Positions 7,945 to 8,113 of a stretch of 9,649 nt of DNA are shown here, in pieces; position 1 is the first letter of the stretch; every line of letters begins with the position of its first letter. The stretch comes from a virus. Under the pieces are notes generated by a model. That model did not search any database and was not told where the DNA came from. It saw only the letters and a program-made list of their open reading frames with translations. The position numbers and the translations under genes were made by a program. The stretch lies in UHGV virus genome UHGV-1443331. One strand, 5' to 3'.

Positions 7945-8113
7945 GAATAAATCCTCAAAATTGCAAAAATGACGACTTACTAACACATGAGTTCAGTAGT
8001 TCATTAGTGTTTTAACATTACATCAGTGAGCTAGTGAGTTCAAGAGGCTTGGATGATATGAGTTCATGAGCATGTATACTCACTTCAAATATTGCATTGA
8101 ACGAGCGTAAAAA
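7945..8113. promoter_or_regulatory. Divergent intergenic control region between gII (minus) and the plus-strand accessory operon, with iterated motifs; candidate operator and/or replication-origin repeats
   Basis: TGAGTTCA occurs three times (7988..7995, 8035..8042, 8059..8066) and AGTGAG-like half-sites four times (7994..8038). Possible -10 TATACT at 8075..8080 and -35-like TTGGAT at 8049..8054. Confidence 0.5.

Follow-up and report, generated by a model that had tools for sequence, protein, structure and literature searches.

The window, that is the whole stretch of DNA that was analysed (9649 bp), is a segment of the E. coli chromosome into which a filamentous (inovirus) prophage has integrated at dif. 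An exact dif site is located at 1316-1343, and a tandem copy begins at the window end, because the last 36 bases are a repeat of 1330-1360. DNA identical to this prophage is found beside hipBA in 48 of 5,426 complete E. coli genomes, while a blastn search with 7700-8400 gave no match in 50,697 phage records. The prophage is a mosaic in which the morphogenesis genes are I2-2-like (66-69% DNA identity), gII/gV and the origin are CUS-1-like (80%), the attP region is 99% identical to the attP region of CUS-1, and the regulator cassette is common to phages with unrelated pII. The nearest sequenced phage is I2-2, with 56% pII identity, and the identity to the pII of CUS-1 is 85%.

The minus strand carries gII (7944..6892), gV, a g3p-like gene, a zot/gI-like gene, and the secretin gene gIV. 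The gII gene, presumed to be the target under regulation, starts with a GTG at 7944 preceded by the Shine-Dalgarno sequence GAGGA, in agreement with the 1053-nt RefSeq CDS of the identical E. coli loci. On the plus strand a 60-aa ORF (8114-8296) and three more ORFs without Pfam families are found, and all plus-strand ORFs belong to PHROG families of unknown function. Between the gII start and the start of the 60-aa ORF lies a spacer of 169 bp (7945-8113), whose boundaries had been correctly set in the first-pass annotation. The features of this region are collected in Table 1.

Table 1. Genes, candidate operators, predicted promoters, and predicted origin of the gII/regulator region (window positions).
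Feature	Position	Strand	Details
gII (pII/pX, replication initiator)	6892..7944	-	PF05144 3e-70, PF05155 5e-29
Exchangeable regulator and operator cassette (putative)	7944..8285		homology breakpoints versus CUS-1 and L006
O3 (gII-proximal candidate operator)	7988..8003		tandem 8-bp boxes TGAGTTCA + GTAGTTCA
gII promoter (predicted)	8015..8043	-	-35 TTGAAC 8043..8038, 17-bp spacer, -10 TAATGT 8020..8015
O2 (candidate operator)	8027..8050		boxes TGAGCTAG + TGAGTTCA + AGAGGCTT
Regulator-gene promoter (predicted)	8053..8080	+	weak -35 ATGATA, 16-bp spacer, -10 TATACT (8075-8080); 9/12 matches
O1 (regulator-proximal candidate operator)	8059..8082		boxes TGAGTTCA + TGAGCATG + TATACTCA
60-aa predicted ribbon-helix-helix regulator gene	8114..8296	+	phrog_2503, no Pfam family
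Plus-strand origin core (predicted)	8297..8341	-	nick hairpin 8341..8315; inverted repeat GTACCA-4-TGGTAC 8312..8297

The first-pass annotation had drawn attention to three exact copies of TGAGTTCA in the spacer, separated by 47 and 24 bp, together with four AGTGAG-like half-sites, and had considered them as candidate origin iterons, operator sites, or both. The three copies are indeed present on the plus strand at 7988-7995, 8035-8042, and 8059-8066, with the expected start-to-start distances of 47 and 24 bp. When the 169-bp spacer was shuffled with preservation of dinucleotides, any 8-mer at all reached three copies in only 21 of 20,000 shuffles. In the whole window a single extra copy occurs (1516-1523, minus strand; 0.39 expected on both strands), which sits within ORF 1382-1615 and is probably due to chance; its candidacy as a distal operator was dropped, since the background frequency of exact boxes is similar in loci from which this regulator is absent. 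The AGTGAG sites were recovered in part: exact copies lie at 8025-8030 (+), 8033-8038 (+), and 8079-8084 (-), that is, three of the four window copies within 60 bp, and the remainder of the announced four are only looser matches. These “half-sites” belong to flanking boxes of a more degenerate kind, of which they form the TGAG half. Among nine distinct near-identical haplotypes 23 of the 169 spacer positions vary, none of them within the 24 positions of the exact boxes. Apart from the boxes, 7957-7979 and 8111-8133 form a 23-nt imperfect direct repeat (78% identical), the gII-side copy of which resembles a decayed start of the regulator gene (IAKMTTY versus MAKRTTY) and which may be a recombination scar or chance.

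The box itself is a quasi-palindromic TGA-nn-TCA with a GAGT/ACTC core. Scoring of each 8-mer against the box across six divergent phages revealed tandem arrays with 8-bp spacing, the layout of which is kept in all six: a three-box gII-proximal cluster, a two-box middle cluster followed by an invariant AGAGG, and a regulator-proximal box, corresponding in the window to O3, O2, and O1. The flanks of O3 are the degenerate boxes CTAACACA (7980-7987) and TTAGTGTT (8004-8011), and three equivalent tandem boxes are found at -128 to -111 from the regulator ATG in L006, L009, and L005. The boxes are conserved islands within an otherwise diverged spacer alignment, O3 being one such island among the diverged loci, while the central box of O2 together with AAGAGG is invariant across the divergent phages. 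The O2-to-O1 distance is 24 bp (3 x 8) in five of the six loci and 25 bp in L005. At the O1 position L021 contains the degenerate ATGTTCATGAGC in place of the exact box, and in L009 and L039 the box is flipped to TGAACTCA. Such reversals of single boxes between phages at the same position fit a two-fold symmetric dimer that reads the quasi-palindrome TGA-nn-TCA.

Both flanking genes have predicted promoters that overlap the boxes. On the gII side the opposite strand of the O2 box supplies the -35 hexamer TTGAAC in each of the six divergent loci, and the TTGAAC-17/18-TAnnnT geometry is kept in the window, L019, L021, L006, L009, and L005, with -10 sequences that differ. From this geometry gII transcription is predicted to start near 8008, which would put O3 at about +5 to +20. 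On the regulator side the -10 hexamer is kept in the divergent loci as TATACT, TATAAT, or TAGAAT, 30-36 nt before the ATG, and the third O1 box overlaps this hexamer; transcription of the regulator gene is predicted to start near 8087. The predicted promoters match at the level of consensus, a generic promoter scan being not enriched over shuffles.

The 60-aa protein was modelled with AlphaFold2 on a 35-sequence alignment (pLDDT 94), which gave residues 1-10 as extended and residues 11-28 and 34-59 as helices. An N-terminal beta-strand followed by two helices is the topology of a ribbon-helix-helix (RHH) monomer, and on the model this fold assignment is likely. A Foldseek search of the model against the PDB returned no significant match, PDB searches with the protein sequence and with the family profile gave no meaningful matches, and the window protein has no match in Pfam, ParG family PF09274 included. 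Among the 35 homologues sub-threshold matches to ParG (PF09274) were obtained in five (best E = 0.004), with hhalign probabilities of 37% for ParG and 16% for CopG; these weak profile similarities are in register with the beta-strands of ParG and CopG, whose reference sequences were checked against PDB entries. Membership in the ParG family was rejected, the window protein being below the Pfam gathering score. Membership in the RstR family (Xre-like helix-turn-helix) was rejected as well: there is no helix-turn-helix Pfam match, the model is strand-helix-helix, and it is in CUS-1 that a helix-turn-helix protein fills the slot.

The family phrog_2503, labelled “hypothetical protein” in RefSeq, is represented in inovirus prophages of E. 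coli, Salmonella, Klebsiella, Yersinia, Dickeya, Xenorhabdus, and others. A search of the open-access literature found no paper on an RHH regulator of these phages, and a literature search on the motif string yielded nothing informative. In I2-2 (L002, NC_001332) an unannotated homologue is located at 2722-2920 on the minus strand, in which a single additional base, relative to the intact 65-aa genes of the I2-2-like L012 (14.4 kb) and L013 (7.1 kb), interrupts the gene; the interruption is due to a sequencing error or is a genuine loss.

Every homologue of the 60-aa protein that was found lies beside gII in an Enterobacterales inovirus, and the boxes follow the subfamily of this protein irrespective of pII. 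In each of the 10 loci whose regulator has the form R-[TAM]-T-Y-N-V-T-E, a spacer of 133-172 bp contains 2-4 exact boxes, compared with at most 0.17 exact boxes per kb in the remainder of each box-bearing locus, and no box was found in any of the eight loci with other regulators. The box-bearing loci span three types of pII: the type of the window, an unrelated 371-aa type (371-381 aa), and a third type. The regulators of L005-L009 and L039 share 59-86% identity with that of the window and the spacers of these loci contain 3-4 exact TGAGTTCA/TGAACTCA boxes, while the pII (371-381 aa) has no significant BLASTP match to the window pII (E >= 0.01); in L021, with the third pII type, the boxes are still present. 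Conversely, in UTI89 CUS-1 the pII is 85% identical, yet the place of the regulator is taken by a 148-aa helix-turn-helix gene, and the spacer is free of boxes. A scan of IMG/VR that started from the DNA, with the O2-N11-O1 pattern, gave the same picture: all 12 contigs detected have a TYNVTE regulator 71-79 nt downstream.

The co-variation extends to the part of the protein that is predicted to read DNA, as regulator subfamilies differing in the predicted DNA-facing beta-strand carry different boxes at equivalent positions. TTYNVT regulators are associated with TGAGTTCA boxes, TTMAIV regulators (Yersinia, Dickeya, Pectobacterium) with TATGCA-type boxes at -122 and -78, TTASIT regulators (I2-2-like) with GTGTATAC boxes in 8-bp register, and the 62-aa-type regulator with CTTAGATT boxes. 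This correspondence is consistent with the two-stranded antiparallel sheet of an RHH dimer lying in the major groove.

Pairwise BLAST comparisons indicate what is exchanged. Against UTI89 CUS-1 the homology covers 6556-7943 and 8286-8365 with none between, and against L006, which has an unrelated pII, the sole homology in the area is 8027-8278. The mosaic breakpoints coincide exactly with the gII start and the origin, and the spacer together with the regulator gene most likely constitutes an exchangeable immunity cassette that extends from the gII start codon to the plus-strand origin. The locus shares several properties with the repressor-operator (immunity) modules of temperate inoviruses: the regulator gene and the replication gene are divergent, sites recur in the spacer that separates them, these sites co-vary with the regulator, and regulator and sites are exchanged together.

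According to these data it is considered probable, on the strength of sequence comparison, that the TGAGTTCA motifs are operator boxes of the adjacent 60-aa RHH protein in a divergent promoter region. This reading is supported because the boxes co-occur strictly with one regulator subfamily across three unrelated pII types, because they overlap conserved promoter-like hexamers, and because they change with the predicted DNA-reading beta-strand of the regulator. Of the alternatives offered in the first-pass annotation it is therefore the operator part that is upheld by the comparative evidence. In the model that we infer, which covers binding, stoichiometry, promoter positions, and the repressive sign of the regulation, the 60-aa protein would bind the 8-bp boxes immediately to its left, probably as one RHH dimer per box with cooperativity between adjacent dimers, as in ParG or MetJ arrays. 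With O2 over the gII -35 and O3 over the early transcribed region, occupancy would shut down pII synthesis, and the reduced pII would limit replicative-form replication and virion production and so provide for prophage maintenance and immunity. O1, located over the spacer and -10 of the regulator's own promoter, would serve autoregulation.

Another role proposed for such arrays is mainly architectural or accessory, the RHH protein and its boxes modulating either the firing of the origin or how the replicative form is maintained and segregated, as ParG does at its centromere or TraY/TraM beside oriT. It is an improbable explanation here, since the window has no gene for a ParA-like partner, the arrays consist of just 2-3 boxes, the positions of the clusters match those of conserved promoter hexamers on either side, and a specific partnership with the nickase is hard to reconcile with the pairing of the cassette with three unrelated pII/origin types. 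A related and similarly doubtful proposal is that the arrays form a ParG/TraY-like nucleoprotein array by the origin that gates nicking by pII or serves episome maintenance or segregation, the family as a whole representing heteroimmunity cassettes with a simple beta-strand-to-box code. If that were true, a recognition code would be read at residues 8 and 10, where N/T would specify TGAGTTCA, A/V the TATGCA-type, and S/T GTGTATAC.

That the repeats are instead pII-binding elements of the plus-strand origin, either iterons or an enhancer domain, is suggested by several features of the spacer: it lies upstream of gII, like the Ff origin, its box holds GTTCA, which loosely resembles the Ff GTTCCA repeat, and on the viral strand it is 3' of the predicted nick, the side on which enhancer domain B is located in Ff. 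The position of the predicted origin makes this reading very unlikely. The comparison with the Ff/IKe origin that the first-pass annotation had proposed as a check gave its match not at the repeats but at 8297-8341, beyond the 60-aa gene and directly after its stop codon, where the viral (minus) strand reads, from 8341 to 8297, ACGTGCAGT-GTTGGTAAT-ACTGCACGT TT GTACCA-TTCG-TGGTAC. Its AATACTGCACGTTTGTACCATTCGTGGTAC aligns gap-free with the M13 sequence AATAGTGGACTCTTGTTCCAAACTGGAAC from AATA on, and the core also aligns with the two stem-loops annotated as viral-strand origin in the IKe record. The Ff nick falls between T and AATA, a position that agrees with M13 coordinate 5780/5781 in the alignment, and by analogy the minus strand would be nicked between 8327 and 8326. 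Folded as DNA, 8297-8341 gives z = -6.1.

The origin core is present in every locus with window-type pII, namely F11 (twice), UTI89, L004, I2-2, L012/13, L018, and L019, always just downstream of the resident regulator gene, whichever type it is, and is absent from all type-B pII loci, where another conserved double hairpin is found at the equivalent place. The boxes behave in the opposite manner, for they are missing in CUS-1, the I2-2-like phages, and L004 despite the same pII type and origin hairpin, and are present beside unrelated pII types with the different origin-like double hairpin; about 260 nt separate the predicted nick from the nearest box. The spacer contains no nick-site hairpin with a T|AATA loop and inverted repeat, and because it shows no structure when folded as single-stranded DNA (z = +1.2) it is not a hairpin-type origin; Rfam gave a noise-level match only (RAGATH-25, 18 bits against a gathering score of 49). 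Since the origin core at 8297-8341 tracks the pII type and the spacer is unstructured, the origin reading of the repeats was rejected, and CUS-1, which has the same hairpin and no box, illustrates why the origin-iteron half of the first-pass proposal did not hold. Its placing of the origin upstream of gII is right in a broad sense, except that a regulator gene is inserted between the two.

Two specific forms of the origin reading were discarded. An Ff-type pII recognition region would be expected to follow pII, and the repeats are absent beside 56-85%-identical pII (UTI89, I2-2-like, L004) and present beside unrelated pII. Plasmid-type iterons lie next to the origin as direct repeats of about 17-22 bp to which the Rep protein of the replicon itself binds, whereas here the units measure 8 bp, are found in either orientation, and do not follow the Rep protein. 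In the window neither the Ff/IKe-like core ACTCTTGTT nor the I2-2 2551-2580 sequence was found. The latter had been taken as a candidate for the I2-2 origin and now looks like an IKe-type remnant, the element that I2-2 shares with the window being the hairpin 2666-2710. The I2-2 intergenic region thus contains an IKe-like origin remnant (GTACTCTTGTTGCAAAATCGCAAC) besides the window-shared hairpin.

Binding of host factors to the boxes has precedents. LexA acts in CTX-phi. In related phages host regulators act at the equivalent promoter, RovA for example binding the YPO2274 promoter of Ypf-phi (PMC4266046). An assignment of the boxes to a host protein is nevertheless scarcely credible, because they follow the subfamily of the phage regulator in hosts that range from Escherichia to Providencia, because different boxes take their place where similar hosts carry a phage with another regulator, and because the spacer has no LexA-box match. 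The least credible explanation of all, repetition by chance or as a remnant of non-functional duplication, can point to the shortness of the motifs and to the background-like fourth copy at 1516-1523, but it is at odds with the rarity of such triplets among the shuffles and is effectively refuted by the comparative data, in which box sequence and position are kept across phages with an otherwise diverged spacer.

Several other elements were observed in the window and in the compared loci. Two inverted dif-like sites at about 9538-9565 and about 9600-9632 (region 9534-9632) flank a GC-rich hairpin and pair on the viral strand into a forked hairpin (z = -6.7), which recalls the folded single-strand attP of CTX-phi. 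A long near-perfect hairpin at 2045-2121 on the minus strand (-24.5 kcal/mol, z = -8.0) is located right after the gIV stop codon; it is likely a packaging signal, because the I2-2 record places its annotated “morphogenetic signal” at the equivalent position. Another strong minus-strand hairpin, at 1640-1735 (z = -7.0), has conserved counterparts in CUS-1 (88%) and in L006 (75%), a phage unrelated in other respects, and is a candidate for the minus-strand origin or another cis element near attP.

In L004 (E. coli JNE112863, NZ_AP045072) at least three tandem mini-elements of 3.67 kb lie beside a full-size inovirus at about 8976-19024. Each includes a gII (67% identical), an ssb-like gene, two small ORFs, and a 62-aa RHH-like gene, and in each the origin hairpin of window type is accompanied by a double hairpin resembling that of type B; because both hairpin types are present in each, the mini-elements may be satellite phages able to use two helpers. 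In L001 (E. coli F11) the tandem prophage copies at 1830-3519 and 10415-11834 have the same regulator, operators, and origin and different cargo genes. The copies diverge right after the origin hairpin (ACTGCACGTTCT), and the stretch from the origin to attP is therefore a cargo-exchange hotspot.

With the operator reading phrog_2503 gains a probable function as regulator and immunity determinant, and the definition of a family operator makes the lysogeny/production switch of the dif-integrated E. coli prophages (CUS-1/Ypf-phi relatives), which occur in about 1% of complete E. coli genomes, directly testable. In addition, a probable plus-strand origin has been located, and regulator cassettes are seen to be shuffled among phages with unrelated replication modules.

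By analogy the module is a functional counterpart of rstR/ig-2 of CTX-phi and of the RstR-like YPO2273 of Ypf-phi/CUS-1. In CTX-phi, likewise a dif-integrating inovirus, a small regulator gene is divergent from the replication-initiator gene, multiple operator sites lie in the spacer, and the regulator with its spacer is exchangeable while the replication genes are shared. YPO2273 is a putative RstR-like regulator, and the helix-turn-helix gene of CUS-1 stands in the exact slot of the RHH gene described here; the corresponding intergenic region of Ypf-phi/CUS-1 is “believed to be involved in transcription initiation” (review, PMC4266046). The differences are that RstR and YPO2273 are helix-turn-helix proteins, whereas the 60-aa protein is a predicted ribbon-helix-helix, and that the operators here are 8-bp tandem boxes with no LexA box and no detected sequence homology to these modules.

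In the predicted mode of DNA recognition there is a likeness to ParG, the operators of which are ACTC tetramer boxes recurring every 8 bp in direct or inverted orientation, with one dimer per box and cooperative coating (PMC3130281). The O_F/parH sites of plasmid TP228 share with the present TGA-ACTC-A boxes the 8-bp recurrence, the ACTC/GAGT core, and the use of either orientation, so that an array of 4-bp core boxes with 8-bp periodicity is found in both; this is a working analogy and not evidence of membership. ParG itself has a flexible N-terminal tail, a ParF partner, and arrays of 8-12 boxes that double as a centromere, whereas the arrays here are of 2-3 boxes, no ParA-type gene is present, and the similarity is below family thresholds. 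Of the other RHH proteins, Arc/Mnt of P22 and CopG have operators of about 21 bp in which two half-sites are bound by a tetramer, and MetJ needs a corepressor; at family thresholds none of Arc, Mnt, MetJ, and CopG has detectable sequence homology to the 60-aa protein.

The Ff/IKe origin shares with 8297-8341 the hairpin with a T|AATA loop, 1-3 nt, and a 6-bp inverted repeat, in the same spacing as in M13/IKe, and shares no features with the TGAGTTCA spacer. In Ff nothing is encoded between the origin and gII, while here the antisense regulator gene lies between them. In summary, divergent repressor-operator modules and RHH box arrays are already well known and the current understanding is not overturned; what is new is an RHH regulator predicted in an unannotated family, an operator of 8-bp boxes, and the exchange of the cassette among phages with unrelated replication modules.
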